Position numbers and translations under genes: made by a program. Under the pieces are notes generated by a model. It made no database searches and had not been told where the DNA came from. It saw only the letters and a program-made list of their open reading frames with translations. A DNA stretch of 24,262 nt from Campylobacterota bacterium (GTDB taxonomy: Bacteria; Campylobacterota; Campylobacteria; Campylobacterales; Sulfurovaceae): assembly GCA_034722955.1 (NCBI GenBank), contig JAYEOM010000034.1, positions 27,722 to 51,983 of the forward strand. Direction: 5' to 3'. Shown here one piece after another: positions 1 through 22,369 of this stretch. Position 1 is the stretch's first letter. Every line of letters begins with the position of its first letter.

Positions 1-928
1 TCGGCGGAACAATCGGCGGAACTATCGGTAATATTGGAGCGATAGATGGTGGAATTATAGGTGTTGGCTTTGGTGGTGGCGGTGTTGGCTTTGGTGGTAC
101 CGGCGGTACTGGTGGCACTGGTGTTGGCTTTGGTGGTACCGGCGGTACTGGTGGCACTGGTGTTGGATTTGGTGGCACTGGTGTTGGCTTAGGTGGCACT
201 GGTGTTGGCTTAGGTGGCACTGGCGTTGGCTTTGGTGGCACTGGCGTTGGCTTTGGTGGCACTGGCGTTACTGTTGGCTTTGGTGTTGGTGTATAATTTA
301 ATCCTTGCATCAATATATTCTGCAGACTTTGATCACTTACCGAGGCAGGTTTTCCTGTAGGTGTTCTCAATTTTTTTCTATATCTTTTTGAGATTGGTCC
401 TACTTTCCAAATACCATCTTGCAAATATACCATCTCTCCTGTATTGAGTTCGTACATTTTCAGTTTAGTCAAGACAGATATCTGACCTAGTATACATCCA
501 ACCTCTTCATATCGTCCTTTTACTAAACCAAAAAAATGAGTTCCCCGTATACCAATTGTTGCTGATTTGGTTTGAACTTTGAATCTTTCTGGTGCAACTT
601 CCCCAATTTTGCCTGTTACTATACGAAAAAAACCACGGTTTAATTTCATCTTTGCTTTCGAATTTCTCTTAGTATCAAACTTATATTCGCTAAAGCTATA
701 TTTGGAGTTTTCTCCTATTGTGACAATAGTCTGATCATTTAGAATGACTTGAACCTTACTGTTGTTTTTGGTCACGATACTATCTCTCTCCTGGATAGCT
801 GATCCATGTTTGATAGCGATAGTTTTTGTATTGCGTTCTATATTAGCTTTACCTTTGACTGCTGCTACATTACCTATGTTTGCTAAAAGCAGAGCTGGAA
901 TAAAAAGTAAAAGTATATAAGATCTCAT
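1..928 (-). CDS. Secreted FecR-domain protein with long Pro-rich linker (partial, runs off the left edge)
   Basis: Absent from the ORF track; translated by hand. ATG at 928 follows AAGGAG (935-940). Reads MRSYILLLFIPALLLANIGNVAAVKGKANIER...GFFRIVTGKIGEVAPERFKVQTKSATIGIRGTHF..., with a signal peptide and the FecR-type TxxATIGIRGT motif, then (PKPTPVP)n. No stop before position 1. Confidence 0.85.
   Translation of the reverse strand, partial: MRSYILLLFIPALLLANIGNVAAVKGKANIERNTKTIAIKHGSAIQERDSIVTKNNSKVQVILNDQTIVTIGENSKYSFSEYKFDTKRNSKAKMKLNRGFFRIVTGKIGEVAPERFKVQTKSATIGIRGTHFFGLVKGRYEEVGCILGQISVLTKLKMYELNTGEMVYLQDGIWKVGPISKRYRKKLRTPTGKPASVSDQSLQNILMQGLNYTPTPKPTVTPVPPKPTPVPPKPTPVPPKPTPVPPKPTPVPPNPTPVPPVPPVPPKPTPVPPVPPVPPKPTPPPPKPTPIIPPSIAPILPIVPPIVPP
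57..292. repeat. Coding tandem repeats: 21-bp unit (PKPTPVP) and a perfect 39-bp duplication
   Basis: Unit ggtggcactggYgttggcttW (one copy ggattt) starts at 150, 171, 192, 213, 234 and 255 (last copy partial). 81-119 and 120-158 are identical 39-mers. Confidence 0.92.
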
Positions 929-938
929 TTGTTACTCC

Positions 939-2183
939 TTAGTAATTGTACTGTAGACCGATGGATATAGTCTGCTTGTTATAAGATGCCGATTCATAGT
1001 TACTCTCATTTTTAGCATAAGTATAATTGGCAAGTATCTTAAGTTCTTTTGTCAGCTCTCTTTGGAGCGAAAGGTTGATATAGTTGAAATCATCCTCTCT
1101 ATCTATATTCTCTTCGAGAATCACTTCACTACCGAAAGTTCTATGTCCATATTGATAGGTGATTCCAGCGATTGCAAGCCCCTCTATCTCATAGCTGGCA
1201 CCTATAAATAGCTGAAGATAGTCATACTCTGTAAAGGGTGTAGGGTCTGCACTCTTTGCATCAAAACTATTGTATATTGCTTGTGCATAGATATAGTTTT
1301 CTCCATAAAATTTATAAAGACCCAAACTGATACTTGAGAGGGTGTCATCAGCATTTTTATAAAGAGTATCTATATATCTTCGCTCAAGATATTTCAATTC
1401 AACATTAAAGAGCAAACCATCTCCTAGTGAACTAGTCAAACTGGGTGCTATACCATACTGCTCATAGAGATCAAGATCGAGATAGTTCATCCTTCTGTAG
1501 ACTATAGGAAGATATAGTGAAATATTGGAGGTGCTGTAGCCCAAACCTGCATCTATAGAACCATAGAGTGTGTCATAGTAGTGTGCACTATAGTTATCTT
1601 GCCAGTAGAGATTTAGATTACTTTGAAATGAATATCCTCCGGTATCTTCTAACTCATGGACATAGTTGCCACTGAAATTAAAAGAGTGAAATGCACTGCC
1701 GATATCCCCCTCTTCGGTACTAGCCTCTCTGTAGATGCCAAAGTTTAGATTGTCATCATGCCCAAAACTGAGTGTTGCAGAGAATCTTGTAGATACAAGA
1801 CTCCTCTTCTTGTCTACCAGTGTTGAGACAATCTGACGCTGTTGTGGGGTTAAGCGACTATGATCTACAGTATGCATGAGCTCTTTAGATTCATACTCCA
1901 TATTGTTTTTTTGATAGAGCTTTGCAAGTGCTATTGTGGCTTTGGTATTATTGGGATTATACATTAATACGCGTTCATATGCACTCATGGCCCCCTCTTT
2001 GTTTCCTAGCTTCTCTTCACACTCTGCCCATTGCAGGTTGAAACTCTCTGGATTTTTTGTCTCTACAAAATGTTTTTGAAAATAGCTTGCATCGTCTCTG
2101 CATACTGTCTCATTGGCACTCAATAGTGAAAATGGGATCAGAAGCAGTGGAGCTATTTTGCTTATCTGTTTTTTTCTACTCAT
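939..2183 (-). CDS. TPR + outer-membrane beta-barrel protein (Slam/DUF560-like)
   Basis: Signal peptide, TPR-like helices (AMSAYERVLMYNPNNTKATIALAKLY), a Tyr/Phe-rich beta-strand region beginning GHDDNLN, and a C-terminal aromatic beta-signal (SIGLQYNY). GGAGG RBS upstream. Confidence 0.72.
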   Translation of the reverse strand: MSRKKQISKIAPLLLIPFSLLSANETVCRDDASYFQKHFVETKNPESFNLQWAECEEKLGNKEGAMSAYERVLMYNPNNTKATIALAKLYQKNNMEYESKELMHTVDHSRLTPQQRQIVSTLVDKKRSLVSTRFSATLSFGHDDNLNFGIYREASTEEGDIGSAFHSFNFSGNYVHELEDTGGYSFQSNLNLYWQDNYSAHYYDTLYGSIDAGLGYSTSNISLYLPIVYRRMNYLDLDLYEQYGIAPSLTSSLGDGLLFNVELKYLERRYIDTLYKNADDTLSSISLGLYKFYGENYIYAQAIYNSFDAKSADPTPFTEYDYLQLFIGASYEIEGLAIAGITYQYGHRTFGSEVILEENIDREDDFNYINLSLQRELTKELKILANYTYAKNESNYESASYNKQTISIGLQYNY

Positions 2184-2235
2184 ACTATTTTTTCCTCCGT
2201 TAAAATATAATTTTATATATTTTCATCTCTTAGAG

Positions 2236-3954
2236 CTACTCAAATTTGCTAAGAAAGATATCACCATCGCCACTACTGTTACCGTCAAGATCCCCTTCGG
2301 TTGCTCCTGTAATATAGATATCACCATCTCTATCTGTAGTGAGTGAATAGCCAATATCTGCCTCTTTGCTGCCGTACTGCTCTGTTGAGAGTCTAACTCC
2401 GGAACTATCAAATTCACTCAGAAAGATATCTCCTTTACCATTTGGGTTATCGTTGGCAAGGTCTCCCGATGTAACTCCAGTGATATATACTTTCTCATTC
2501 TCTCCAGCTGTGACTGAGCAGGCAAAATCAAGCTCGGAAGTGCCGTACTGCCTAGTCCAATCGGTTTCACCTTCGGTATTGAGTTTGGTCAAAAATATAT
2601 TCCAACTCTCACTAACAAACTCATCATCGATCATATCCCCCGAAGTTCCACCTGTAATATAGATGTTATCAGCTCTATCGATATCCATAGAGGATCCTAC
2701 ATCAGAAGCATAACTGCCAAATAGAGTTGTCCAAGCTCGAATACCTTCACTATTAAATTTACTAAGAAAGATATCACCATAGCCACCTTGAGTGTTACCA
2801 TCGAGATCACCCAAGGTGCTACCCGAAATAAAAATATCATCTTGGCTATCTATGCCTACAGAGTTGGCAATATCATCTTCTGTACTACCATACTGTTTTA
2901 TCCAAAGATTTGTGCCATCATTTGTAAACTTTGCAAGGAAGATATCTCCACCACCTAAATTTTGAATATTTTTCATATTCCCATAGGTAACTCCAGTAAT
3001 ATAGATATATCCAGCACTATCTATTGCAATTGAATGTCCTATATCACTAGAGTTTATACTTCCAAATACTTTGTTCCATATTCGTTGTCCGTCACTATCT
3101 ATTTTGCTAACAAATACATCTCCACCTCTCTCTCCTGTGATATATATGTCACCTTTATTATCAACTGTTATGCCATATCCTATATCATTCTTTGCGGCAC
3201 CATACTGTTTTGTCCATATCCTAGTTCCTAATTTGCTAAATTTTGTAAGAAAAATATCCCACCCACCATATCTGGTATTGTCATCAAGGTTTCCACCAGT
3301 GGCACCAACGATATATATATATCCATCATTATCAGTAGTTACAGCTTTTCCATAGTCATAGCTGACTGTGCCATACTGTTGAGTCCATACCAAGCTTTCA
3401 GGAGTAATTGGTTGATTTGCAAATTCATCAATCATAGCCTTTGCATCCTCTACACTCTGGGTATCTACGGTAACTCCTTCCATTACAGCTCTTGCTTGGT
3501 CACTATCGTTGAGACCACTCTCTGCGAAGTAGAGTCCGACTTCTGTTTTGTTCTGCACTATTATCTTATCATCTCCCAATGCTCCGCGAATGATATCCAA
3601 GATAGCAGAGGATCTTGTTATTGTTCCACTGTCAAGCTCTCTTACCCAGTACTCTAAACCATCTTCATCTGGCTCATGCTCAAATAGATTTTTATAAACA
3701 GTGGTGATAAACTCTTCATTTGTAAGTGAATTGGGATATTTTTTTTGTGTCTCTTCCTGATAGAAGAAGTTCTCTGAGATCTGTTCGAGTGATAGACCTG
3801 ACTTCAGCCAATAGTCCAACCCCTTGGCATCAGATGCTCTATCAAAAAAAGCAATATAGAGTTCTGCTGTACTCTCCTGTGTAGGCTCTTCTGCATATAT
3901 GGGAATTGAAAAGAGGAAAAATGCAGATAAGAGTATGGATAAAATGATTTTCAT
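2236..3954 (-). CDS. Secreted DUF4214 (S-layer N-terminal-like) + seven SBBP beta-propeller repeats
   Basis: Start moved to MKIILSILLS, which follows AAAGGAG and begins a signal peptide. LYIAFFDRASDAKGLDYW and VYKNLFEHEPDEDGLEYW match DUF4214. Seven W-x-x-Q-Y-G...D-x-x-G-x-I-Y-I-T-G...D-I-F-L-x-K repeats follow. Confidence 0.85.
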   Translation of the reverse strand: MKIILSILLSAFFLFSIPIYAEEPTQESTAELYIAFFDRASDAKGLDYWLKSGLSLEQISENFFYQEETQKKYPNSLTNEEFITTVYKNLFEHEPDEDGLEYWVRELDSGTITRSSAILDIIRGALGDDKIIVQNKTEVGLYFAESGLNDSDQARAVMEGVTVDTQSVEDAKAMIDEFANQPITPESLVWTQQYGTVSYDYGKAVTTDNDGYIYIVGATGGNLDDNTRYGGWDIFLTKFSKLGTRIWTKQYGAAKNDIGYGITVDNKGDIYITGERGGDVFVSKIDSDGQRIWNKVFGSINSSDIGHSIAIDSAGYIYITGVTYGNMKNIQNLGGGDIFLAKFTNDGTNLWIKQYGSTEDDIANSVGIDSQDDIFISGSTLGDLDGNTQGGYGDIFLSKFNSEGIRAWTTLFGSYASDVGSSMDIDRADNIYITGGTSGDMIDDEFVSESWNIFLTKLNTEGETDWTRQYGTSELDFACSVTAGENEKVYITGVTSGDLANDNPNGKGDIFLSEFDSSGVRLSTEQYGSKEADIGYSLTTDRDGDIYITGATEGDLDGNSSGDGDIFLSKFE

Positions 3955-3985
3955 CATATCTCCTTTTCTTAATTTAAGATATCTA

Positions 3986-3994
3986 ATTATATCA
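3986..3994 (-). promoter_or_regulatory. Extended -10 promoter element (TGATATAAT) for the DUF4214/SBBP gene
   Basis: Plus-strand attatatca, about 30 nt upstream of the start codon. Confidence 0.5.
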
Positions 3995-4061
3995 TATATA
4001 TCAGCTTTTTTGTAAATTAAAATTTTATGACTTACTGCAGATAAAGAGTTGTAACTGAATG

Positions 4062-4565
4062 TTACAGTATCACTCTTTTGCAAATGATAACTCTTTTTTG
4101 GTAGAATGGCTTATTGAGACTCGTTCTGATAACGCCTCTTTTTGAGCTGCTTGCATGGATGAAGTTGCCGTTGCCTATATAGATACCAACATGATTGACC
4201 TCTCCTCGGAACCGTTTTCTGGTATCAAAAAAGATCAGATCACCATATTTGAGCCTATCTATAGGTATAGTTTTGCCACGCTTTGACTGATCGATAGATT
4301 TTCTAGGCAGCCATAGATTCATAGTAGCAAAACTATAGTATACGAGTCCTGAGCAGTCAAAGCGATTGGGACCTTGTCCTGCATATCGGTAAGAGTCTCC
4401 ATAGGTTCCTCTGAGGATTTTGTGGAGTGCGGATAGTGATGGTTGTTGGTACTTGACTACCGGTATATAGCGTTGTTTTGAGCTGCAAGCAGTAAAAAAA
4501 ACAAGAATAACTGCTAAAGTGTATATGATAGCTATATCTCTGGAGATAAAATGTTCTCTAAACAT
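4062..4565 (-). CDS. NlpC/P60 (C40) peptidoglycan endopeptidase lipoprotein
   Basis: Lipobox-like FTAC; catalytic motifs FDCSGL, GDLIFF, HVGIYIG and FIHASS. Confidence 0.9.
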   Translation of the reverse strand: MFREHFISRDIAIIYTLAVILVFFTACSSKQRYIPVVKYQQPSLSALHKILRGTYGDSYRYAGQGPNRFDCSGLVYYSFATMNLWLPRKSIDQSKRGKTIPIDRLKYGDLIFFDTRKRFRGEVNHVGIYIGNGNFIHASSSKRGVIRTSLNKPFYQKRVIICKRVIL

Positions 4566-11362: not shown

Positions 11363-11587
11363 ATGCAAGTAACCATAGATGTAAAAGAGAGTGCGTTAGA
11401 GCAAGTGATGTATATACTTAGAAATTTGTCAGATGTAAAAGTACTTCAAGATAGAGAAGAACCGAAAAAACTAGATGCGGAGGATCTCTTTTTTTTGGAA
11501 GCAGAGATAGAGAAAGGGCTTGGGTCAGGAAGAAGTGATAAGAGTCATGCCCAAATCATAGATGAATTAAAACAGAAATATGCATAA
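11363..11587 (+). CDS. Putative antitoxin (ParD-like C-terminus)
   Basis: 74 aa, acidic; LEAEIEKGLGSG resembles ParD C-terminal segments; overlaps the toxin gene by 8 nt. Confidence 0.7.
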   Translation: MQVTIDVKESALEQVMYILRNLSDVKVLQDREEPKKLDAEDLFFLEAEIEKGLGSGRSDKSHAQIIDELKQKYA

Positions 11588-11873
11588 AATAGTCTATTCC
11601 AATGAAGCAGAAGATGATATATCAGATATTATCGACCATATAGCCAAGGAGAGTGAGAGTAATGCATTGGCATATTTAGAAAGGTATGATGAGAGAATGG
11701 CACTACTACAGGCAAATCCTAAAATGGGGACACCCTGTGCCAATAAAAATATAGATAAAGTCTGTAGGGTATTGACATCAGAGAGTCATATAGTGATTTA
11801 TGAAGAGAGTAATGATGAGATTTTTATCATAAGAATCTTTCATCAATCGGTAAATTATCCAATAAAAGTTTGA
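11580..11873 (+). CDS. RelE/ParE-family toxin
   Basis: 97 aa; IVYSNEAEDDISDIIDHI...NPKMG...HIVIYE...IFIIRIFH ParE-type pattern. Confidence 0.85.
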   Translation: MHKIVYSNEAEDDISDIIDHIAKESESNALAYLERYDERMALLQANPKMGTPCANKNIDKVCRVLTSESHIVIYEESNDEIFIIRIFHQSVNYPIKV

Positions 11874-11975: not shown

Positions 11976-12950
11976 TTATTGCTCCACTTTGGGACATCTC
12001 ACCCAGTGACCCTCTTCTGTCTCTAGCATATCTGGATGGATTGTGTCGCAGGTATGATCTCTATGGGGGCAGCGATTTGCAAAAAAACAGCCTGCAGGCA
12101 GATCTATAGGTGTTTGAACTTCGCCATCTTTCAATAGACTCTCTGTCATAAGTGGTGTGTTTATAGTCGGTACTGTAGATAGCAGCAGCTTGGTATATGG
12201 ATGCTTGGGTGAACTAAAGAGAGTCTCTTTGGAAGTATACTCTATGATTTCACCTAGATACATCACTGCTACAAAATCACTGATATATTTAACGACGCTG
12301 ATATCATGTGTGATAAAGAGCAGTGTCAAGTTGTACCTCTTCTGAAGATCCATCATGAGGTTGAGTATTTGTGCCTGTATGGATAGATCTAGTGCAGAGA
12401 TCGGTTCATCAGCCAAAATGAGTGCGGGTTTGAGGATGATCGCTCTGGCTATCGCGACTCTCTGTTGCTGCCCGCCTGAAAATTCATGAGCGTATCTATC
12501 GAGGTAGCTTGGGTCGATTCCCACTTCATCACATAGGGAGAGTATCGTTTTTAACCGCTCTTTTTGATTCATATTGGTATGGATCTTCAGAGGCTGTTCC
12601 AGAATACTCTTTATCTTTTTTCTAGGATTGAGAGAAGAGTAGGGGTCTTGAAAGATCATCTGTATATCTTTTTGGGTTGATCCTCTATCGCTTGGAGTGG
12701 TTTTTGCGATATCTTTTCCTTGGAATAGTATTGAGCCATCGGTTGCCTGATAGAGTCCCAATATAACCTTGCCGATCGTTGTTTTGCCACAACCACTCTC
12801 TCCAACCAAAGAGAGAGTTTTGCCTTTGAACATATCAAAACTCACTCCATTTAGTGCATGGAGATCCCGTTTACCAAAAGTCCCTGAACTCACTCTAAAT
12901 ATTTTTTTTACGGCATTAACTTCCAGAAGTTTGACTAAATCTTGTGACAA
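11976..12950 (-). CDS. Peptide/nickel ABC transporter ATPase (DppF/OppF type)
   Basis: Walker A GESGCGKT, signature FSGGQQQR, ADEP, HPYT and a C-terminal Cys cluster; TTG start overlapping the upstream ATPase. Confidence 0.93.
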   Translation of the reverse strand: MSQDLVKLLEVNAVKKIFRVSSGTFGKRDLHALNGVSFDMFKGKTLSLVGESGCGKTTIGKVILGLYQATDGSILFQGKDIAKTTPSDRGSTQKDIQMIFQDPYSSLNPRKKIKSILEQPLKIHTNMNQKERLKTILSLCDEVGIDPSYLDRYAHEFSGGQQQRVAIARAIILKPALILADEPISALDLSIQAQILNLMMDLQKRYNLTLLFITHDISVVKYISDFVAVMYLGEIIEYTSKETLFSSPKHPYTKLLLSTVPTINTPLMTESLLKDGEVQTPIDLPAGCFFANRCPHRDHTCDTIHPDMLETEEGHWVRCPKVEQ

Positions 12951-13888
12951 AATATAACCCTTTCACCCAGAACCACTCTCTTGGGATATATATCGCACTC
13001 GCTATCAGCAAATTCACATCGTTCCCTAAAGTAGCATCCTGTGGGGAGATGGAGTAGAGACGGCATAACGCCTGGTATCTGGTGCAGTTTTTTTTGCTTC
13101 TCATCGAGTGTTGGCAAGCATGCGATCAACCCTTTGGTGTATGGGTGTTTTGGATCATATATGATCTCATCTTTACTCCCATACTCCACAATCTTTCCTG
13201 CATACATCACTGCTATCTTGTCGCATATCTGTGAGATAACCGCTATGTCATGGGATATGAAGATCAGAGAAGATCCAAAATCACTGCTAAGTTTTTTCAT
13301 CAGATAGAGGATCTGTGCCTGTATTGTCACATCGAGTGCTGTTGTCGGCTCATCAGCTATCAGCAGCTTCGGGTTATTTAGAAGAGCGATAGCGATAACA
13401 ACTCTCTGCTTCATCCCTCCGGAGAGTTGATGTGGGTAGCTCTCCATTCTCCTCTTGGCTGAGGGCAATCCCACTCGCTTTAGCATCTCTATACTCTGGC
13501 TGTATGCATCCTCTCTGGAGAGAGATCTTTGATGATATAGCATCGTCTCTATCAACTGTCTGCCGATAGTGATAACAGGATTGAGTGATGTTTCAGGATC
13601 TTGAAATATCGTGGCTATCTCATCTCCTCTGAGATTTTCAAACTCATCTTCACTCAGCTTTGTCAAATCTCTATCCTTAAAGATAATGCTACCTCCGACA
13701 ATCTGGCCGGGTTGATCGATCAGGTTCAATATAGAAAATCCAGTGACTGATTTGCCTGCCCCAGACTCTCCGACTATCCCAACTATTTCACCCTTCTTAA
13801 GACCAAAACTGATCCCATCGACAGCTTTAACAACTCCCTCTTTTGTAAAAAAGTAGGTTTTTAAATCATTGACTTCTAAAAGTGCCAT
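12935..13888 (-). CDS. Peptide/nickel ABC transporter ATPase (DppD/OppD type)
   Basis: [31 protein letters not shown] and C-terminal GC..RC..C..C. Confidence 0.93.
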
Positions 13889-14739
13889 TATCTCTCCATC
13901 CTTGGATTCATCATATCTCTTATCCTGTCACCCATAAGGTTGATAGAGATGATCAAGAGCATCAAGACGATACCCGGGAAGAGAGAAGTCCACCAAAATC
14001 CGCTAAAGAGCACTTGATATCCATTGGAGATTAGAGTACCTAGGGAGGGCTCTGTGATGGGGACACCCACACCCAGAAAACTCAAGGTAGCCTCCAAAAC
14101 AATAGCATAAGCGATTCTAACTGTAGCTATCACGATAATAGGAGCAGTTGCATTTGGCATGATTTCGCCAAAGATGATAAAGAGATTGTGCATGCCAAGT
14201 GCTTTTGCAGATTGAACATACTCTTTCTCTTTTTCCAAGAGGACAATACCTCGGGCAGTTCTCGCATAATAGACCCAGCTCACAATAGTAATCGCGATGA
14301 TGATCTTGTTGATGCCTGCTCCCCATAGAGCCATGATAATAAGTGCTATCAAGATAGCAGGAAAAGAGAGTTGTATATCTGCGATCCTCATGATGATCGT
14401 ATCGACCCATCCTCCATAATATCCAGATATGAGTCCAGCAGAAAATCCGATAATAACAGAGAGTATCATGCTAGCAAGCCCTACATAGAGTGAAGTTCTC
14501 AGCCCATAAAGTATCGCTGAATATATATCTCTCCCCTGCTCATCTGTCCCTAGGATAAAGGAGTGATTTGGTGGTTGAAAACTATTTTGCAGGTAGATCT
14601 GTGTCAAATCATAAGGGTCTTGATAAGCAAAAATCGATGGAGCTATCGCCACAATAGCAAATAGTGCAAAGATGACGAAGCCAACTTTGGCACTCTTCTC
14701 TTCAAAAAATTCTGATATAGATCTGTTTTTTATCTTCAT
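13888..14739 (-). CDS. Peptide/nickel ABC transporter permease (DppC/OppC type)
   Basis: LGTDEQGRD, EAA-loop EYVQSAKALG, LSFLGVG and NLMGD. Confidence 0.93.
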   Translation of the reverse strand: MKIKNRSISEFFEEKSAKVGFVIFALFAIVAIAPSIFAYQDPYDLTQIYLQNSFQPPNHSFILGTDEQGRDIYSAILYGLRTSLYVGLASMILSVIIGFSAGLISGYYGGWVDTIIMRIADIQLSFPAILIALIIMALWGAGINKIIIAITIVSWVYYARTARGIVLLEKEKEYVQSAKALGMHNLFIIFGEIMPNATAPIIVIATVRIAYAIVLEATLSFLGVGVPITEPSLGTLISNGYQVLFSGFWWTSLFPGIVLMLLIISINLMGDRIRDMMNPRMER

Positions 14740-15689
14740 GAGAGCCTCACCCTTGGGTCGATCATAGTGTAGATGATATCAACTATAAAATTGATGAAGA
14801 CAAATATAGAAGCGATCACCAATAGATAAGCGATCACCACCGGTCTATCCAGATTTTGGATCGAATCAATGATCAGCTTCCCTGTACCTGGCCAAGCAAA
14901 GATAGTCTCTGTGACGATGGTGAAAGCGATGAGTTGACCAAACTGTATGCCGATGACTGTCACCAATGGAATGAGTGTATTCTTGAGTGCATGATCATAG
15001 AAGATCACTCTTTGGGGTAGACCTTTTGCCTTGGCAAACTTGATATAATCCTGTGCCAATACTTCACTCATGCCACTCTTTGTGAGTCTGATGATCAATG
15101 CTAACTGAAAAAGAGAGAGTGTTGTGACAGGCATGATGAGGTGTTTGATGCCATCCCAAGTAAAAGCAGAGGTGAAGAGATAGACTTCTCCTCTGCCTGA
15201 TGAGGGCAAGAGATTGAATGTGACAGAGAATAGAAGTACAAGCAGCATTCCCATCCAAAAAACCGGCATGGAGATACCCGTAAGAGAGAAGATCATAATA
15301 GATCTGCTCTTGATAGAGTTTGGATCGGTAGATGCTATGACTCCTAGTGGAATACCCAATAGTATGGATATCATCATAGATATGATGGCAAGTTCTAGTG
15401 TGGCAGGCAGTCTCTCTAGTACTATATCAAGGGCAGGTTCTCCATAGATAAATGAATTTCCGAGATCTCCATGCGAGAGTTGAACCAAAAAACTTTTGTA
15501 CTGTACGATAAAAGATTGATCTAGTCCCAGAGTATGTCTCATCTGCACAACCTCTTGCTGTGTGGCATCAGGAGGCAGTAGCAGCTGAACGGGATCTCCG
15601 GCTTTGAACATGATGAAAAATGCGATAAAACTGATAGAGAGCATCACCAAAAAGGAGTGAAAAAGTCTACTTGAGATAAATTTAATCAT
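14736..15689 (-). CDS. Peptide/nickel ABC transporter permease (DppB/OppB type)
   Basis: Start moved to MIKFISSR. GDPV, GDLGNS, DYIKFAKAKGL, ETIFAWPG and DPRV motifs. Confidence 0.93.
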   Translation of the reverse strand: MIKFISSRLFHSFLVMLSISFIAFFIMFKAGDPVQLLLPPDATQQEVVQMRHTLGLDQSFIVQYKSFLVQLSHGDLGNSFIYGEPALDIVLERLPATLELAIISMMISILLGIPLGVIASTDPNSIKSRSIMIFSLTGISMPVFWMGMLLVLLFSVTFNLLPSSGRGEVYLFTSAFTWDGIKHLIMPVTTLSLFQLALIIRLTKSGMSEVLAQDYIKFAKAKGLPQRVIFYDHALKNTLIPLVTVIGIQFGQLIAFTIVTETIFAWPGTGKLIIDSIQNLDRPVVIAYLLVIASIFVFINFIVDIIYTMIDPRVRLS

Positions 15690-15696
15690 GGCTCTC

Positions 15697-17235
15697 TCAT
15701 CTCTTTTTAATATCAAATGCCCAGATATGACTATCTACTCTCGGTTCAAAATGAATCTTTTTGTTTGAAGCGTAGAGATCTACCTGAAAATGCAGAGGAA
15801 TGACAGATTGGTTATTCAGCAGGGCGATTTTTTGTGCCTCTTGCAGATATTTCAGACGCTCTTCGGGGTGCATTATATCTGCTGACTTTTCGATCAATGC
15901 ATCGACTTTGGGGTTTGAAAATCTTCCATAGTTATATCTCCCATACCCCTTTATCTCATCAAAAGAGTGAACACAAGAGTCCAGTATCGAGCTTGAATCA
16001 CCATCACCACTCGCCCATCCTACAAGAAAGAAGCTTGTCTCCAACCGACTAATCTCTCCAAAAAATCTCGACTTTGGCATCGCATTGACAGTGACTTTTA
16101 TCCCGATTTTGGCCAAGCAGGATGCAACAGCTTCTGCTATATGCGAATCCTTGACATAGCGATTGTTTGGAGAGTCCAGCCGTATGCTAAACCCGTTAGG
16201 GTAGCCTGCATCGGCGAGTAGTTTTTTAGCTTTTGCCAGGTTGTGTTTTGCTCTTCTCATGTTTGGATCTGATCCAAAAACAGCAGGTGGGCTTAACTGT
16301 GCGGCTGGTTTGGCAAAACCTCTCATGATATATTTGGCAATTGCCTCTTCATCGATACCATAATAGATCGCTCTTCTTACTCGTAGATCTTTAAGCGGAT
16401 TTTTGCCGGTTGGACTCTCTATGTAGGGTGATATGTGACGAAGCTGATCCATCTGTAGATAGATGAGTCTCAGACCCGGTTGCTCAAAAAAGTTTAGAGT
16501 GTTACTATTTTTCACTCTGTGAACATCGGTGACAGGAACCCTGTTGATAATATCAACTTCACCGCTCAGTATCGCCGCGACTCTCGTTGCACTATTGGTC
16601 AGAGGTTTAAGGAGAAGATGATCAAAGTGGGCTTCTCCATGCCAATAGTTTGGGTTTGCTTTCAAGCTAATGTGATCCCCCTTGCTCCAATCAATAAATC
16701 GATAAGGTCCTGTACCTACAGGATGGATAGCAATCCACTCATCTGCTCTACCCTCTAGCGTCTCCCTGTCCACTATGTTAACATAGGTTAATTTTTTTAA
16801 AAATATCGGGTATGGTTTTTTTGTCACGAACTTTACAGTATATTCATCGACCTTGGAGGCAGAGTCGATCATATGCACCTTGCCCTTAAATCCTGACTTG
16901 TCCCAACGCTTAATCCTGTTAAATGAGAAGATAACATCATCGGCGTTAAAAGCACTGCCATTATGAAATTTTATATTTTCTCTTAGCTTCATTATCCACA
17001 CTTTTGGCTCTGGATTACTCCAAGATATTGCAAGATTTGGATAGATTTTTAGATCTTTATCAAAGCTGACTAGAGAGTCAAATATATTGGAGAGGATGGA
17101 GATAGTGGCTACTTCATTGAGTGCATGCGGATCCATAGTGAGAGCACCAGAAGCCAAGCCTATCTTTAGGGTGTGAGCTTGACTTGTGATGGCTAGAGAG
17201 ATAAGTGCTATGAAGCTGATGAGTATCTTTTTCAT
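15697..17235 (-). CDS. Family-5 (DppA/NikA/OppA-like) periplasmic solute-binding protein
   Basis: Signal peptide; MDPH, KFHNG, GTGPY, RVRRAI and AKKLLADAGYPNGF motifs. Confidence 0.93.
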   Translation of the reverse strand: MKKILISFIALISLAITSQAHTLKIGLASGALTMDPHALNEVATISILSNIFDSLVSFDKDLKIYPNLAISWSNPEPKVWIMKLRENIKFHNGSAFNADDVIFSFNRIKRWDKSGFKGKVHMIDSASKVDEYTVKFVTKKPYPIFLKKLTYVNIVDRETLEGRADEWIAIHPVGTGPYRFIDWSKGDHISLKANPNYWHGEAHFDHLLLKPLTNSATRVAAILSGEVDIINRVPVTDVHRVKNSNTLNFFEQPGLRLIYLQMDQLRHISPYIESPTGKNPLKDLRVRRAIYYGIDEEAIAKYIMRGFAKPAAQLSPPAVFGSDPNMRRAKHNLAKAKKLLADAGYPNGFSIRLDSPNNRYVKDSHIAEAVASCLAKIGIKVTVNAMPKSRFFGEISRLETSFFLVGWASGDGDSSSILDSCVHSFDEIKGYGRYNYGRFSNPKVDALIEKSADIMHPEERLKYLQEAQKIALLNNQSVIPLHFQVDLYASNKKIHFEPRVDSHIWAFDIKKR

Positions 17236-17324: not shown

Positions 17325-19340
17325 CTAAAACTTATAGTTGAGTTCAAATTTGATATTTCTACCCATTGCAGCATAGTTGAGCTGTTGCCACCCGTAGGAG
17401 AGGTGATCATAATACTTTTTATCTAATATATTCTCAAACGAAAGCGATGCGTTGATACCGTTGCTATGGATTAGATAGGTTTTGAAATCTACTGTAGTGT
17501 ACCCTGGAGTCTCCTTCTCTCCTACACCGATCTCGTCTTGTCTTGCTGCACTGGTAGCTGAGAGTTCTAGGTTGATATCCATATCACTCCAGTAGGTCTC
17601 ATAGTTGACTCCATAGCGAGCCTTGTTTGCAGGGATAGCAGTGAGTGCACCCCCTGTGTCATCATCCTCTCCTTTGATAAATGAGCCTGAGACAAAGAGG
17701 CTCAATGTATCACTGATAAAGTAACTAAAGTCTAGTTCGCCACCATAGATCTTTGCATTGGTTATATTTTGATATTGGTAGATCTGCTCAGAGACTGGGT
17801 CAGTTGGATTGGTGAGAATCTTTCTGATGAGGTCATCGATACTATTGTAGTAGAGTGAGAATGAAGCTCTATAGTCATCTGTAGCGATTCGTACACCAAT
17901 ATCACTATTGAGACTAATCTCTGGGTCAAGATTTGGGTTTCCTCTATCTTGTGATGGACCATCATGTGGACCAAAGTAGTATCGCTCTATGAGTGTAGGG
18001 GCTCTAAAAGCACGACTGATATTGGCATAGATATTGCTCTTCTTGTTAATATGGTAGACTACTCCTATCTCACCACTCATAGCTGAATCTCTGTCAGATT
18101 GTGGTGAAGTGATAAAAAATGGCTCAGGGGCCCCATCTGTTTTTGTTTCGATAGAGTCATAACGCACACCTGCTGTCATACTCCAACACTCGCTTAGTGT
18201 GATAGCATCTTGCATAAAGACCCCTATGCCATCTCTAGAAGATGGAGAGATGACAGGTACACCGCTAAATTTACCAATGACTGGAGGATATCCATTCATG
18301 ATGCGTGAAGAGGTGAGATCCTCATCAAAGAGATCAAATCCTGTAGTAACGCGGTGCATATCATTAGGCACTAAAACCCACTGCCCACGGAGTGTAGAGG
18401 TATCCTTGTCAACCTTTATATCGGTAAGTTTATTCTCGTCTGGTTGGCGTATACGGTGCCTGTTGTGCTCCTGGTGGCTTGCAACCAAAGAGAACTTTCG
18501 AAGCAGTCCCGTATCAGAACGATAGGCAATCTTAGTGTCACCCATTGTATGTGTCTCATCCTTGTAGTAATCAGAGACGAAGTCTCTAGGTGCAGTGATA
18601 CCGATATCAGCTCTGTTTTGCCAAATATTGAGTGCTATACTCCAATCACCCATTGTGTAGTCACCACCGCCCCAAACGGTATATCCATCATAAAAACTAA
18701 ACTTCACATCCTCTTCGGGCGATTTGATATCGTCTGATTTTCGCTTGATGCCTCCTAGATAGAGATTCAAGTTTTTTCCGCTAAGGTTTATCTGTCCTTT
18801 GGCTCTCTTTTCATTACTGTTGCTCCCATAGCCCAATCCTACTTCACCACTTACGGTGAGATTGTCATCCTCTGTTTGTACTGATTTTTTGGTGATGATA
18901 TTGACAACCCCACCTATGGCACCAGCACCATAGAGTACAGAGCCTGACCCTTTGACTATCTCTACTTTCTCTATCTGTGCGGGGTCTATGGAGAGGATAT
19001 GGTTGCCTCCTGGTCTCTCATCTGAGAGCCTCACTCCATTGACAAGTATCAAAACTTGCTCATCAGAGAGTCCACGAATGACAGGCATGACTGAGCCTCC
19101 TGCACTTTTGGCATCGACTCCACTTGTCTGTTCGAAGATCTCCTTGGTAGTAGTTACCCCTTGTTGTTGCATAGTATCCGAACTTATCACAGCTACTGAT
19201 ACTGGTGCTTGTGTTGCTTTGAGTTGAGGGTTTTGTGTCGCTGTTACACTCACCTCCCCAAGCTCGACACTCTCATCTGCGCAGAGTGGATTTGCTAGGA
19301 GTATAGCAGTAGCCATACTCAAGTAGATTTTTTTTCTCAT
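17325..19340 (-). CDS. TonB-dependent outer-membrane receptor (probably metal/metallophore)
   Basis: Signal peptide, TonB-box-like ESVELGEVSVTA, plug motifs IRGL and IEKVEIVKGSGSVLYGAGAIGGVVNIITK, RAPT, GNPNLDPE, NILDKKYYDHL, terminal Phe. Confidence 0.93.
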   Translation of the reverse strand: MRKKIYLSMATAILLANPLCADESVELGEVSVTATQNPQLKATQAPVSVAVISSDTMQQQGVTTTKEIFEQTSGVDAKSAGGSVMPVIRGLSDEQVLILVNGVRLSDERPGGNHILSIDPAQIEKVEIVKGSGSVLYGAGAIGGVVNIITKKSVQTEDDNLTVSGEVGLGYGSNSNEKRAKGQINLSGKNLNLYLGGIKRKSDDIKSPEEDVKFSFYDGYTVWGGGDYTMGDWSIALNIWQNRADIGITAPRDFVSDYYKDETHTMGDTKIAYRSDTGLLRKFSLVASHQEHNRHRIRQPDENKLTDIKVDKDTSTLRGQWVLVPNDMHRVTTGFDLFDEDLTSSRIMNGYPPVIGKFSGVPVISPSSRDGIGVFMQDAITLSECWSMTAGVRYDSIETKTDGAPEPFFITSPQSDRDSAMSGEIGVVYHINKKSNIYANISRAFRAPTLIERYYFGPHDGPSQDRGNPNLDPEISLNSDIGVRIATDDYRASFSLYYNSIDDLIRKILTNPTDPVSEQIYQYQNITNAKIYGGELDFSYFISDTLSLFVSGSFIKGEDDDTGGALTAIPANKARYGVNYETYWSDMDINLELSATSAARQDEIGVGEKETPGYTTVDFKTYLIHSNGINASLSFENILDKKYYDHLSYGWQQLNYAAMGRNIKFELNYKF

Positions 19341-19351
19341 AGATATTTTCC

Positions 19352-19373
19352 TTTTATCACTAAAAAAGTCTAT
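19352..19373 (-). terminator. Weak hairpin with U-rich 3' arm between the leader ORF and the TBDT
   Basis: Minus strand AAAGAGUC-AGAUA-GACUUUUUU: 8-bp stem with one G-U pair, ending next to the TBDT RBS. Confidence 0.3.
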
Positions 19374-19420
19374 CTGACTCTTTACTTATAATTGCATTGA
19401 TTTTTTTGGGTGGACAGTAT

Positions 19421-19759
19421 CTATACTAGTGGAGGGGCGTGAGAAAAGTATCCTAGAGCTAAAGCTTTGACTACATACTTCCTAGGTAGAGGAGATGCCT
19501 CAAACTCTATGGGAACTTGAGTTAATATAGAGGCTCTTTTGTAGACTCGTTGGGGCTGAGTTATCTGTGCTGTATAGAGTGAAACTCTTTCATGAAAAAA
19601 AGCTTCGCTATGAGAGACACTCTTGGTTTGCTTGCTTGCAGCACAGACTTGACACTGCTTGTCTGCCTTAAAGTGATGCTCAAAGTGTGTAATATTTGCA
19701 TAATAAACAAAGAGAACAAATGGTACTAATAGTAGTTTGATATATTTATATTTGTTCAC
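19421..19759 (-). CDS. DUF2946/CruR/CutF-like metal-binding leader ORF with RAPP-like C-terminal motif
   Basis: GTG start; basic then hydrophobic N-terminus; H25-x-x-H28-H29; C36-Q-V-C39; C-terminus YFSHAPPLV; first gene upstream of a TBDT. Confidence 0.7.
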   Translation of the reverse strand: MNKYKYIKLLLVPFVLFVYYANITHFEHHFKADKQCQVCAASKQTKSVSHSEAFFHERVSLYTAQITQPQRVYKRASILTQVPIEFEASPLPRKYVVKALALGYFSHAPPLV

Positions 19760-19902
19760 TGAGACTTCTTGTGGTTTTAATTTATTGATTTTACTATATA
19801 TAACCTATGAATAAGGATTGAGTTTGAGATTTAGGTAAAATTACCTCATATAATAGAAACAGCCAAACTCTAAAAGTTCCTAAAGTTTCTGCTCAGCATC
19901 AA

Positions 19903-19956
19903 CCCGAATTATGCAACAGAATTGCTAGTTTAGTAATCTCTATTGCGTATTTCGGG
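19903..19956. repeat. 54-nt imperfect inverted repeat
   Basis: Arms pair as CCCGAA/TTCGGG, TATGCAA/TTGCGTA, AGA/TCT and ATTGCTA/TAGTAAT around a GTT loop. Confidence 0.7.
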
Positions 19957-19994
19957 ATAAAATAGTGATAATATATAGGAAATTTCTTTAGTTT

Positions 19995-20003
19995 TGCTAT
20001 AAT
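19995..20003 (+). promoter_or_regulatory. Extended -10 (TGCTATAAT) 5 nt before the HD-GYP ATG
   Basis: Perfect TGnTATAAT; no SD precedes ATG 20009. Confidence 0.6.
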
Positions 20004-20008
20004 AAATT

Positions 20009-22369
20009 ATGGAAAAAATAAATCAAAAATCTCTAATCATCTCTGTAGTTATTTTACTGATCTTACTCGTAACTTTTTTTATAATCCTTCAACTCATCTC
20101 ATCAAAAAACAGTGAAAAATTACTCTCTGAGCAGCAACTCATTCAAGAGGCCAAAGCTCACTTTCAGGGTATGGTAGATACTCGCTCCTGGAATGCCAAA
20201 TATGGTGGTGTTTATGTCAAAGCAACAGATGGGCTTGAGCCAAACCCTTATCTGAAAAACAATACTCTACTTACTGATAAAAATAAAACTCTCATCAAAA
20301 TAAATCCTGCATGGATGACAAGACAGATATCTGATATATCTAACAAACAGGGTAACTATCACTTCAAGATCACCAGTCTGAAGCCGATAAATCCATCAAA
20401 TAGAGCGGACAAATTTGAAACCCAAGCACTTAAATTTTTTGATAATAATCCTAAAGAGAACTATTTCTATATCTTCAATAGAGATGAAAAAAGTTTTAAT
20501 TTTATGGGAGCACTGCCTACAGCGCAAGCCTGCCTAAAGTGTCATGAGTATCAGGGTTATAAGATTGGAGATATCAGAGGTGGGATTAGGGTCTCTGTGC
20601 CTCTGGAGCTTCACAATGAACATATGACTCTTTTGTCAGAAAAAACTAAAAATAGTATCATTATTGTACTTATTATTGCCATTATACTTATCGCGATACT
20701 ATACTGGTTTATCGATCTATTGTATAGACGCAAATACGAAATAGAGCATGCAAATGAGATACTGGAAGAGAGAGTAAAGCAGAGAACTTATGATCTTGAA
20801 GTGGTTGCATCTCATGAACTACATCTAAAAGATGTATTGAAGATCATAACAGAGGTTAATGAGATGCTTATAACATCTTACTCTACAGAGACTATTTTGA
20901 AAAATGCTACCAATAAGCTCTCTACAAATGGAGCATACTCTTTAGTTTTGAGTGGATTGATTCATGGAGATATTTTAGATATTATCTCCAAATCTTCAGA
21001 GGTTACAAATTTAGTACCTCAAGATATAGTTTCACTTAAAGAGCAAGATGATCAAAACTTTTTGTTTGATGCCGTAGAGAAAGCTACAAAATTAAAATAC
21101 CCTATTATAGAAAAAGTTTCTCAAGAGTTACTCTGTAGTGATGAGTGCAGACGCAAAGATGAGTTGGATCTTCAATGGATGATAGTTTTACCACTGCTGC
21201 ATGGCTTTGAAAATGATGTTTATGGCATGATCACTGTATTTTGTTCACGAGAAAATGGCTTTGAAGTAGAGGAGATAAAGATACTGGAAAATATGGCTCA
21301 TGATATCAGTATCGCCCTATACTCACACAAACAAAGAGACTCTATCCTTGAGATGGAAAAAGAGAAGAGTGCCAACTATGAAGAGACTATATTAGCCTTT
21401 GTCAATATCATAGAGCAGCGTGATACCTATACTGCCGGTCATACTATCCGAGTGGCAGAGTACTGTGCAATCATCGCTAAATATATGGGATTTAGCGATG
21501 AAGATATACACCAATTGGAGAAAGCTGCTATCTTGCATGATATAGGTAAGGTAGCTACCCCCGATACGATACTTCTCAAGCCTGGTAAATTATCTCATCT
21601 TGAATATGAGCTTATTCAGCAGCATGCTGAAATTGGTGCTGATATGCTTGAGAGAATCACTATCTACAGAGATTTGGCAGATATCATCAGATATCATCAC
21701 TCTAGGTATGATGGAGAAGGATACCCAAAGACTGCCTCACCTGATAATATATCAATGTCATCACATATCATGATCGTTGCAGATGCTTTCGATGCTATGA
21801 CAACAAATCGAATCTACAGATCAAGAAAGAGTATTGATGAAGCTCTGCAAGAGTTGATAGACGGTAGAGCCGAACAGTTTCATCCAGAGGTCGTAGATGC
21901 TGCTATCATCGCCTTGAAAGATATCAACATCAGTAGTACATCGCAGATGCCAACTTCAGAGATGGAGCAGAGACGAATGTCCTATTTCTTCCAAGATGCC
22001 CTCACAGGACTCTACAACGAAGACTATTTGCAAACAATGCTCAACTCCAATAATCATAACTATAGATGTCTCAATATAATAGATATGAAAAAGTTCACAA
22101 AATACAATCAAACATATGGTTGGGAAGAGGGAAATAGCCTGCTTAAGAGATTTGCCAAGTTTTTAAAGACCTCCTTCCCAGATGCTATAGTCGTACGATA
22201 TCATGGAGATGATTTTGTTATCTTAAGTCGCATACATGATGTCATCAGCTCGGAAGTGATGTCAAAATGTGATATTATAAAGCAAAATATTATAGAGATA
22301 GATATTGTACATTATGATATAGATTCATATTTTAATTTTGAGAAGTTTAAAAATATAGAAGACAGATAG
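20009..22369 (+). CDS. Membrane signalling protein: heme-c DUF3365 (Tll0287-like) sensor + GAF + HD-GYP + degenerate GGDEF
   Basis: TM, then TSLKPINPSN and CLKCH...GDIRGGI (DUF3365), a second TM, a GAF-like region, RDTYTAGH, HDIGK, HHSRYDGEGYP, VADAFDAMT, then DALTGLYN...RYHGDDF. Confidence 0.88.
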   Translation: MEKINQKSLIISVVILLILLVTFFIILQLISSKNSEKLLSEQQLIQEAKAHFQGMVDTRSWNAKYGGVYVKATDGLEPNPYLKNNTLLTDKNKTLIKINPAWMTRQISDISNKQGNYHFKITSLKPINPSNRADKFETQALKFFDNNPKENYFYIFNRDEKSFNFMGALPTAQACLKCHEYQGYKIGDIRGGIRVSVPLELHNEHMTLLSEKTKNSIIIVLIIAIILIAILYWFIDLLYRRKYEIEHANEILEERVKQRTYDLEVVASHELHLKDVLKIITEVNEMLITSYSTETILKNATNKLSTNGAYSLVLSGLIHGDILDIISKSSEVTNLVPQDIVSLKEQDDQNFLFDAVEKATKLKYPIIEKVSQELLCSDECRRKDELDLQWMIVLPLLHGFENDVYGMITVFCSRENGFEVEEIKILENMAHDISIALYSHKQRDSILEMEKEKSANYEETILAFVNIIEQRDTYTAGHTIRVAEYCAIIAKYMGFSDEDIHQLEKAAILHDIGKVATPDTILLKPGKLSHLEYELIQQHAEIGADMLERITIYRDLADIIRYHHSRYDGEGYPKTASPDNISMSSHIMIVADAFDAMTTNRIYRSRKSIDEALQELIDGRAEQFHPEVVDAAIIALKDINISSTSQMPTSEMEQRRMSYFFQDALTGLYNEDYLQTMLNSNNHNYRCLNIIDMKKFTKYNQTYGWEEGNSLLKRFAKFLKTSFPDAIVVRYHGDDFVILSRIHDVISSEVMSKCDIIKQNIIEIDIVHYDIDSYFNFEKFKNIEDR

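Follow-up and report, generated by a model that had tools for sequence, protein, structure and literature searches.

The window analysed in this study is a 24,262-nt stretch of the genome of a Campylobacterota bacterium belonging to the Sulfurovaceae (GenBank assembly GCA_034722955.1, contig JAYEOM010000034.1, positions 27,722 to 51,983 of the forward strand). An uptake cluster of seven genes lies on its minus strand and comprises a small open reading frame (ORF), a TonB-dependent receptor and a family-5 ATP-binding cassette (ABC) importer. A preliminary description of the window had proposed that the small ORF, referred to below as the leader, encodes a metal-sensing peptide at which the ribosome arrests. 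Translation and the ORF layout confirmed that this 112-aa ORF heads the seven same-strand genes. In addition, the residues and coordinates first given for its histidines (H25, H28 and H29), its CxxC motif and its H-A-P-P motif, two residues before the stop, were all correct. The features of the leader are the following:

19421 to 19759, minus strand: leader ORF, 112 codons with a GTG start, as read from the translation; one of an unannotated Sulfurovaceae family with members of 112–121 amino acids (aa)
19688 to 19735, minus strand: hydrophobic membrane anchor or export segment (approximately residues 9–24) behind a Lys-rich N-terminus, with a predicted N-in/C-out orientation
19673 to 19687, minus strand: His cluster H25-x-x-H28-H29, immediately past the anchor
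19643 to 19654, minus strand: C36-Q-V-C39, the CxxC motif, invariant in the family
19442 to 19642, minus strand: tether of 67 residues (40–106), including a conserved P/A-L-G-Y/F block (101–104) ahead of the candidate stall motif
19430 to 19441, minus strand: H107-A108-P109-P110, the candidate ribosome-pause motif, of which only A-P-P is invariant
19421 to 19429, minus strand: L111-V112-stop, the window being the sole member with two residues past APP

This combination of motifs was uncommon in the window's genome. Among 6247 ORFs of at least 60 aa in the six frames, only three had APP two to four residues ahead of the stop. Two of these three also contained CxxC, the second being an apparently spurious low-complexity frame. 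The combination is more than chance, because it is rare in the genome and was kept in homologues of the leader.

The homologues indicated that the leader is a real gene family of 49 distinct members, found in Sulfurovaceae and one neighbouring family. A phmmer search of 1.84 billion representatives identified nine proteins at E ≤ 0.001, and a six-frame search of 41 related genomes identified full-length relatives in four. A search with a 5-row alignment found three loci in metagenome-assembled genomes of Sulfurovum. Scans were then made of the order (401 genomes) and of the window's own taxonomic family (250 genomes). A 12-member profile matched 17 genomes of the order at E ≤ 0.001 (nine full-length, eight in the N-terminal half only), and 48 genomes of the family, limited to 3 of its 11 genera, matched at E ≤ 1e-5. 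One full-length member (genome G258) belonged to a second family of the order. An hmmsearch over the ORFs of the fetched loci produced 59 matches, which collapsed to the 49 distinct proteins as several places were present under two locus identifiers. One further protein (P0010; 872 aa, six short stretches, E 2e-4) was excluded from the alignments because its match is probably an artefact of repeats.

The family has escaped annotation. Searches of Pfam and NCBIfam identified nothing for the leader ORF, and a word-indexed single-sequence protein search returned only its own cluster. The 57 database homologues found with a 48-row profile were all hypothetical or unnamed, except for one with an obviously wrong label, and none had a Pfam domain; all the named records that hold leader members were Sulfurovum. 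An Atlas look-up returned the leader's own cluster, unnamed Bacteroidota clusters and one cluster, at rank 22, in which 13% of the members had the DUF2946 domain PF11162, all of which we treated as leads only. No description of the leader family, or of a zinc-sensing leader of such a kind, was found in those portions of the literature that were searched.

Conservation within the family was analysed in an alignment of 48 members, one member whose N-terminus was cut by a contig end (L061) having been left out. Six columns were invariant in all 48 rows: H25, C36, C39, A108, P109 and P110. M1, L11 (44/48), Q20 (47/48) and G103 (46/48) were near-invariant, and L102 was present in 42/48. The other histidines were H29 in 40/48, H28 in 30/48 and position 50 in 36/48, and every member had two to four His between the anchor and the first Cys. 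The near-invariant Gln at position 20, where the window has Tyr, is a polar residue inside the hydrophobic anchor.

At the C-terminus, the residue before APP was variable among the 49 members (Thr in 32, His in eight, Asn in three, Met in two, and Arg, Ala, Leu and Ile in one each). The view that the window motif is an R-A-P-P with His in place of Arg was therefore not borne out, and of the conservation predicted for CxxC and HAPP, CxxC and APP held in 48/48 while the His of HAPP held in only 8/49. APP was followed by four residues in 42 members, by three in six and by two in one, the window. The spacing from the second Cys to the residue before APP was 69 in 33 members, 70 in eight, 68 in four, 67 in two, and 71 and 73 in one each. 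Thus the tether of about 68 residues noted in the preliminary description is conserved in length (67–73); it matches the geometry of the copper leader CutF and would fit exposure of the metal site in the periplasm during a stall. APP was written in 23 distinct codon triplets that together used every Ala and Pro codon, and because of this selection on APP is seen to act on the peptide. Conservation by column was lowest in the tether (0.41) and highest in the C-terminal block (0.72), which extended beyond APP as P-L-G-Y/F-x-x-x-A-P-P-x-x-F-S, with "FS" being the last two residues in 30/49. The proposal of a conserved small ORF with an export-type N-terminus, CxxC and a near-stop Pro-Pro was borne out in this 49-member family.

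Structure prediction with AlphaFold2 and the alignment produced a helix at residues 3–32 (predicted local distance difference test, pLDDT, 87–95 across the initial 20 residues), followed by a short one at 37–48. There was no fold past the N-terminal helices (predicted template modelling score, pTM, 0.28; pLDDT < 50 for residues 49–80). By the positive-inside rule, the Lys-rich N-terminus would place the anchor N-in/C-out, and the N-terminus is probably an uncleaved anchor. Most members had an AAGGAG-type Shine-Dalgarno sequence ahead of them, as judged by eye.

The position of the leader was also conserved. The preliminary description had placed it first before outer-membrane uptake genes, and in 48/49 loci the next same-strand gene was indeed of a recognised exported outer-membrane uptake type, at a gap of 25–203 nt. 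In 24 loci this gene encoded a porin-like outer-membrane protein of ~420–460 aa that has a His-rich loop, and in 18 a lipoprotein of ~300–335 aa, behind which came a TonB-dependent receptor. A receptor of the window's type was encoded in five loci and another exported protein in one; in the last locus (L064) the gene was unclassified, no reference type having matched. One Sulfurovum genome (L039:6893-10222, also present as L080) had two tandem leader copies, each ahead of its own outer-membrane gene, in the order leader, 284-aa exported protein with an EEHHEH stretch, second leader and 436-aa porin-like protein.

The genes behind and ahead of these leaders suggested which metal might be involved. 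Behind the porin-like gene were ZnuA-like and ZnuB-like genes, and a ZnuA-like gene was within 5 kb in at least 16/49 loci, a lower bound because many loci extend no further than 1.5 kb. Among solved structures, the ZnuA-like protein was closest to Synechocystis ZnuA (6.6e-20), with His at three aligned positions that we take to be the zinc ligands of the latter; matches of this binding protein to MntC and AztC were below cut-offs. For the receptor behind the lipoprotein gene, ZnuD was the top-scoring model (144.9 bits; cut-off 950), and a 122-aa Fur-family gene was directly upstream of the leader, on the same strand, in 21/49 loci. Because of these Fur-family, ZnuA/ZnuB-like, ZnuD-like and His-rich porin-like neighbours, zinc is the most likely metal for the family. 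We give it about an even chance, with copper and some other metal each being unlikely and nickel or cobalt more unlikely still.

A kinship of the leader with DUF2946, the family of the copper leader CruR, had been suggested, and its N-terminal half supported this. DUF2946 proteins are reported to have CXXC and RAPP motifs 45 residues apart (± 1–2) in >2000 proteins, with an export signal in >95% (PMC9426467). The CruR homologues listed there are from beta-, gamma- and alphaproteobacteria and a few other phyla, Campylobacterota not being among those listed (PMC9426467). Our PF11162 search of 101 genomes of the order identified short ORFs (84–106 aa) in other families, with a layout of HHH..CxxC, about 45 residues and RAPP. 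As a positive control, 5/5 of the short proteins scanned matched PF11162 (best 1.3e-5). Alignment of the long family with these short Campylobacterales proteins by hhalign had probabilities of 93.8% (E 1.7e-7) and 96.7% (E 3.9e-10), in matches that cover only 50 columns, from the anchor to just past CxxC. The His and both Cys were at equal distances from the start in the two groups (25, 36 and 39). From the hhalign link and these shared positions, the long family is a distant DUF2946 relative, with a tether longer by ~24 residues and with the Arg lost.

The short proteins (L009-L012, L019, L030-L035) share with the long family the anchor-His-CxxC module, an x-A/S-P-P end and a downstream pair of a homologous porin-like gene and a ZnuA-like gene. 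The porin-like genes behind short and long leaders were homologous at 35% identity (E 4e-76). The short proteins differ from the long family in their length, in the ~45 residues between the motifs and, for the five scanned, in matching PF11162. Most of them end in RAPP, which is replaced by HAPP, QAPP or RSPP in three. Two of the short loci (L031:1489-1770 and L033:1420-1701) have a 93-aa DUF2946-type leader ending in HAPP and not RAPP, just downstream of a multicopper oxidase gene and ahead of a porin-like gene; His therefore occurs at the motif position in the 45-residue class as well. Two others (L030:1501-1761 and L034:1393-1713) end in R-S-P-P, and an Ala-to-Ser change in a RAPP-type motif is described as partially permissive for arrest (PMC12992588).

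Two leaders of the DUF2946 type have been studied, and both are reported to act as nascent chains that are undetectable as mature proteins (PMC9426467; PMC9973294). In CruR (Bp2923 of Bordetella pertussis), a stall at RAPP in the absence of copper blocks Rho-dependent termination ahead of the receptor gene, and a globular fold is likewise not predicted (PMC9426467). The window family resembles CruR in its CxxC, its putative export signal, an x-A-P-P two to four residues from the stop, and its lead position in a presumed operon that includes a TonB-dependent receptor gene. CruR differs in that the Arg of its RAPP is essential, this motif is 45 ± 2 residues from CxxC, the signal peptide is dispensable and the spacer is 162 nt long (PMC9426467), whereas the window family has Arg in 1/49 members, a spacing of 67–73 and no PF11162 match.

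CutF, a DUF2946-like protein of the Rhodobacter capsulatus cutFOG operon, has the motifs Cys41xxxCys45 and P109EPEGPPPRL118, with 67 residues from the Cys motif to G113 (10.1101/2025.02.05.636593). Its signal peptide is essential, it senses periplasmic copper, and its EF-P-dependent stall opens a stem-loop over the ribosome-binding site of the next gene, EF-P being elongation factor P (10.1101/2025.02.05.636593; PMC9973294). CutF is a small exported leader, as the window's ORF is predicted to be. Both lie directly upstream of their known or presumed target gene, with a Cys pair close to where the exported part begins, a Pro-Pro without Arg two residues before the stop and ~67–68 residues from the Cys motif to the Pro motif (67 in the window; family mode 69), and both proteins are poorly structured or unstable. 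Differences are that the CutF motifs are CxxxC and PPP, that its signal peptide is cleavable, that it lacks a His cluster, and that with copper it turns on a detoxifying oxidase through the stem-loop that masks the ribosome-binding site. The window family has CxxC with His, A-P-P, a probable uncleaved anchor, uptake cargo and a metal that is probably not copper. The window ORF is thus CutF-like in geometry, because of its 67 residues, lack of Arg and two residues after the Pro-Pro, and CruR-like in cargo, because an uptake receptor is downstream.

The arrest peptides ApdA, ApdP, ApcA and SecM are also small secreted or membrane proteins encoded upstream of a regulated gene, with an A-P-P-type motif near the C-terminus. 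In contrast to the window family, where Arg is absent, the cargo is for metal uptake and a candidate ligand site is present, these peptides have an irreplaceable Arg and monitor the Sec/YidC machinery. Arrest of this class is characterised by having the third codon of the motif in the P site and the fourth in the A site. Systematic mutagenesis identified no substitute for the Arg of the R-A-P core in ApcA, ApdA or ApdP, in keeping with earlier work on SecM, and CruR no longer arrests in vitro when it carries R139A (PMC12992588). As the motif position in the long family is variable and mostly Thr, an arrest of the RAPP type cannot simply be assumed. If the family stalls, a polyproline-type, EF-P-sensitive pause is more likely. 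A-P-P is among the stronger X-P-P contexts in the EF-P literature, and the window's genome encodes both EF-P (227.5 bits) and Rho (685.4 bits), each above its cut-off.

We slightly favor the reading that the window ORF is a cis-acting, co-translational metal-sensing leader of the CutF/CruR kind, a distant long-tether DUF2946 relative that would pause the ribosome at APP. In such a leader, the Lys-rich N-terminus and hydrophobic helix would bring the nascent chain to the membrane in an N-in/C-out orientation, thereby placing the H25/C36/C39 site, along with H28 and H29, at the periplasmic face. With the ribosome at A108-P109-P110, about 68 residues would lie between this site and the peptidyl-transferase centre, enough for the exit tunnel and the translocon, as in CutF. 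For lack of the Arg, the pause at APP would be of the polyproline, EF-P-sensitive type and not the RAPP type. Its duration would vary with whether metal occupies the His/Cys site and, two to four codons before the stop, would set the expression of the downstream outer-membrane uptake gene. If the logic is that of CruR, without metal the stall would persist, the downstream mRNA would be protected and the receptor would be made, whereas with metal the stall would be released and the transcript terminated or silenced. The analysis itself establishes the family, its invariant residues, the length of the tether, the gene order and the homology of the sensor half to DUF2946; it is the topology, the pausing, the identity of the metal, the polarity and the downstream read-out that we infer.

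A bolder form of this reading, possible but on balance doubtful, would take the long leaders and the 45-residue RAPP leaders as two length classes of one sensor-leader family before homologous zinc-uptake operons. The Arg-less xAPP class, with its 69 residues, would then be a transmembrane "ruler", its chain running through the translocon and the exit tunnel from a periplasmic His/Cys zinc site to a weak polyproline pause. Zinc binding would pull on or fold the chain and so release the ribosome, after which Rho would shut off outer-membrane zinc import.

The read-out of such a pause would lie in the spacer behind the leader, which has the following features in the window:

19341 to 19420, minus strand: leader-receptor spacer of 80 nt
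19364 to 19382, minus strand: 7-bp hairpin followed by a U run, weakly terminator-like, present in the minimum free energy (MFE) and centroid folds
approximately 19350 to 19352, minus strand: GGA Shine-Dalgarno sequence of the receptor gene

A promoter and terminator scan of 19000–20200 found sites to be no commoner than in shuffles, with none in the spacer, and called no terminator. An Rfam scan of 19200–20100 identified no riboswitch, its only match being osmY at 18.6 bits against a gathering score of 46.9. Folding indicated that codons 103–106 or the stop region of the window's leader can pair with the receptor's Shine-Dalgarno sequence and AUG. In MFE folds of many loci, UUUUUCAUAA paired with UUAUGAAAAA, placing the last leader codons against the start of the next gene. 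The composition of the family's spacers was distinctive. Relative to a crude, ORF-based background of 361 spacers of the window's genome, these related sequences had less G (5.6% vs. 14.1%) at a similar C (15.0 vs. 15.4%), with a mean (C-G)/(C+G) of 0.53 vs. 0.04. The G content by cargo was 3.9% before porin-like genes, 4.7% before the window receptor type and 10.8% before lipoprotein genes, and after similar spacers had been grouped, 13/23 clusters had a skew of at least 0.3. These G-poor spacers would fit a Rho-loading site and a Rho-dependent read-out, as in CruR.

A number of results weigh against the cis-acting leader. Masking of a ribosome-binding site or start codon in the manner of CutF was dropped as evidence, as pairing of the leader 3' ends with the start of the next gene (mean -8.21 kcal/mol) did not exceed that in 515 same-strand gene pairs of the AT-rich window genome (-8.16 kcal/mol, p = 0.30). 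The window's spacer folded well on its own (z = -2.5; 3/200 shuffles fold as well) and was unremarkable in a larger context (z = -0.35). The G-depletion was measured on related sequences against a crude background, and the window's own spacer, with 10 C and 9 G, is an exception in the family in not being G-depleted. The window copy is also an outlier in having Y20 rather than Q, A101 rather than P, two residues after APP and a spacing of 67. RAPP-type arrest needs an Arg ahead of APP, where only 1/49 members have it and the window has His, so that data from E. coli or B. subtilis do not lead one to expect a strong intrinsic arrest, and the Pro motif of CutF alone is reported not to be a strong staller (PMC9973294). 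The suggested DUF2946 kinship stood for the N-terminal half and not as membership of the Pfam family, as PF11162 matched 0/12 of the long-family members at E ≤ 10 and neither the window protein nor the whole genome of the window (G000) at E ≤ 1. With regard to the metal, all the zinc-type names rest on scores below curated cut-offs. The window itself is without a Fur-family or ZnuA-like neighbour, and its receptor is of the heme-receptor family and its substrate-binding protein (SBP) is like HbpA, GsiB and DppA.

The genes of the window's own cluster, and the region upstream of the leader, are:

17325 to 19340, minus strand: TonB-dependent receptor, 671 aa, with Plug and barrel, of the heme/hemoglobin-receptor type
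15697 to 17235, minus strand: family-5 SBP
14736 to 15716 and 13888 to 14739, minus strand: two permeases
12935 to 13888 and 11976 to 12950, minus strand: two ATPases with an oligo_HPY tail
19760 to 20008, no strand: divergent region of 249 bp upstream of the leader, presumed to be the promoter region

The leader is separated from the receptor gene by 80 nt and the receptor gene from the SBP gene by 89 nt, and the genes past that of the SBP overlap. The receptor scored 300.5 bits with TIGR01785 (cut-off 316.85), and its orthologue in L081 scored 321.8 bits. Its best solved relatives were ShuA, PhuR and then ZnuD, and it carried FRAP...H...NPNL boxes. A match to the TonB-copper model was weak (116.8 bits against a cut-off of 472), as were matches to OprC chains. 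Orthologues of this receptor followed a family leader in four other loci (L081, L085, L086 and L087), in all of which the ABC genes were absent. The next genes were on the opposite strand or unrelated in three of these loci, and a second receptor with TonB-ExbB-ExbD in the fourth. The leader and the receptor are thus a conserved unit, of which the ABC genes are not conserved partners. For the SBP, the best solved relatives were an unnamed SBP (5u4o), HbpA, YliB/GsiB and DppA; the NikZ-type 4oet had 2.6e-33 and NikA chains were weaker. Nickel models scored well below their cut-offs with the SBP (Opp5A_nikA 169.1 vs. 600; TIGR02294 134.6 vs. 393), and GsiB scored higher.

These neighbours bear on other explanations of the locus. 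The preliminary description had taken the ABC importer as a hint of nickel or cobalt, with the leader controlling the receptor and a Nik-type importer. The family-5 SBP and oligo_HPY ATPases do follow the receptor gene closely on the same strand, and the SBP does have some similarity to Opp5A_nikA. However, that score is far under its cut-off and behind GsiB, the HbpA, YliB/GsiB and DppA structures outrank the Nik chains, the importer is missing from the four other loci with this receptor type, and the window showed no gene for a urease, a hydrogenase or NikR. The hint was left unsupported, and we regard a nickel or cobalt sensor as improbable. Copper, which would bind CxxC as Cu(I) and release the stall while the receptor imports copper, is unlikely too, if slightly less so. 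CxxC is the copper motif of CruR, the only two studied relatives sense copper, the short-type leaders in L031 and L033 adjoin a multicopper oxidase gene, and the window receptor has its weak matches to the TonB-copper model and OprC. Against this, no copper gene adjoined a long-family member in the loci read, where ZnuA/ZnuB-like, ZnuD-like, His-rich porin-like and Fur-family genes were found instead. In addition, an invariant His, one to three more His and two Cys would suit zinc as well as copper, and DUF2946 genes are reported ahead of czrCBA in a Zur-related transcriptome of Caulobacter (PMC4176598).

Two further explanations would do without a nascent-chain switch. The leader could be stable and work in trans, as a small bitopic membrane protein that serves as a periplasm-facing metal chaperone, a sensor or an assembly partner of the outer-membrane uptake proteins, with its conserved C-terminus being a protein-binding motif rather than a stall site. 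We consider this rather unlikely, and it is nonetheless the strongest of the rivals, as the C-terminal block is the best conserved part of the protein and reaches past APP (G103, L102 and the FS end), Shine-Dalgarno sequences of this strength point to high translation, RAPP arrest would lack its Arg, and the association with three different outer-membrane cargo types would also follow from a partner protein common to them. The lack of a predicted fold outside the anchor argues otherwise, as does the homology of the sensor half to DUF2946, with its two studied members that act as nascent chains. A constant tether length with free sequence and a fixed distance from APP to the stop are, moreover, what would be expected of a ribosome/translocon ruler and not of a folded domain. 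It is very improbable that the ORF is irrelevant to regulation and that the receptor is under transcription-factor control only, from its own promoter in the 80-nt spacer. The spacer does have a TATAAG-like hexamer, its hairpin and U run could end a leader transcript, and with a Fur-family regulator adjacent in 21/49 loci transcriptional control surely exists; the promoter scan found no site inside 19341–19420, a conserved first position across gaps of 25–203 nt and three cargo types would be difficult to account for unless leader and cargo are functionally linked, and transcriptional control and a leader switch are not exclusive.

A shared operator was looked for by k-mer and palindrome counts on 44 upstream regions, which yielded nothing beyond the Shine-Dalgarno sequence and the end of the coding sequence of the Fur-family gene. 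The region upstream of the window's leader contains a 14-nt palindrome, AGGTAATTTTACCT, at approximately 19833–19846 (minus strand), ~87 nt upstream of the leader start, with no counterpart in the other loci. Divergent from the leader, at 20009–22369 (plus strand), is the gene of a 786-aa membrane protein with a Tll0287-like (heme-sensor-type) region and GAF, HD-GYP (HD_5) and GGDEF domains, possibly a c-di-GMP signalling protein, which shares the 249-bp upstream region with the leader. Just past the end of the ABC genes, at 11363–11873 (plus strand), is a pair of overlapping small genes, the second of which (97 aa) encodes a ParE-family toxin (Pfam 3.1e-15) and the first (74 aa) presumably its antitoxin. 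At 2–4083 (minus strand) is a row of genes that may be a surface-lipoprotein export set. They encode a FecR-domain protein, a protein like SlipAM (surface lipoprotein assembly modifier) and a protein of 615 aa in which DUF4214 is combined with six beta-propeller (SBBP) repeats.

The metal-sensing nascent peptides studied to date are two, CruR and CutF, both of which sense copper and are from Pseudomonadota. The family described here would extend the leader principle to Campylobacterota, in sulfur oxidisers of the deep sea and brines, and to zinc-type uptake genes, with a candidate stall motif that lacks the Arg current work deems indispensable. If the ruler form of the reading is correct, it would be the first zinc-sensing nascent-chain switch, and the short and long leaders would be a natural pair that separates cytoplasmic from periplasmic metal sensing by linker length alone. 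The occurrence of short RAPP and long xAPP forms before homologous genes offers a direct test of tether length against sensing site. At least 49 genes that are now hypothetical and without a Pfam family can be named candidate leaders, and the annotation of the porin-like, lipoprotein and receptor genes that follow can carry a flag of putative metal regulation.

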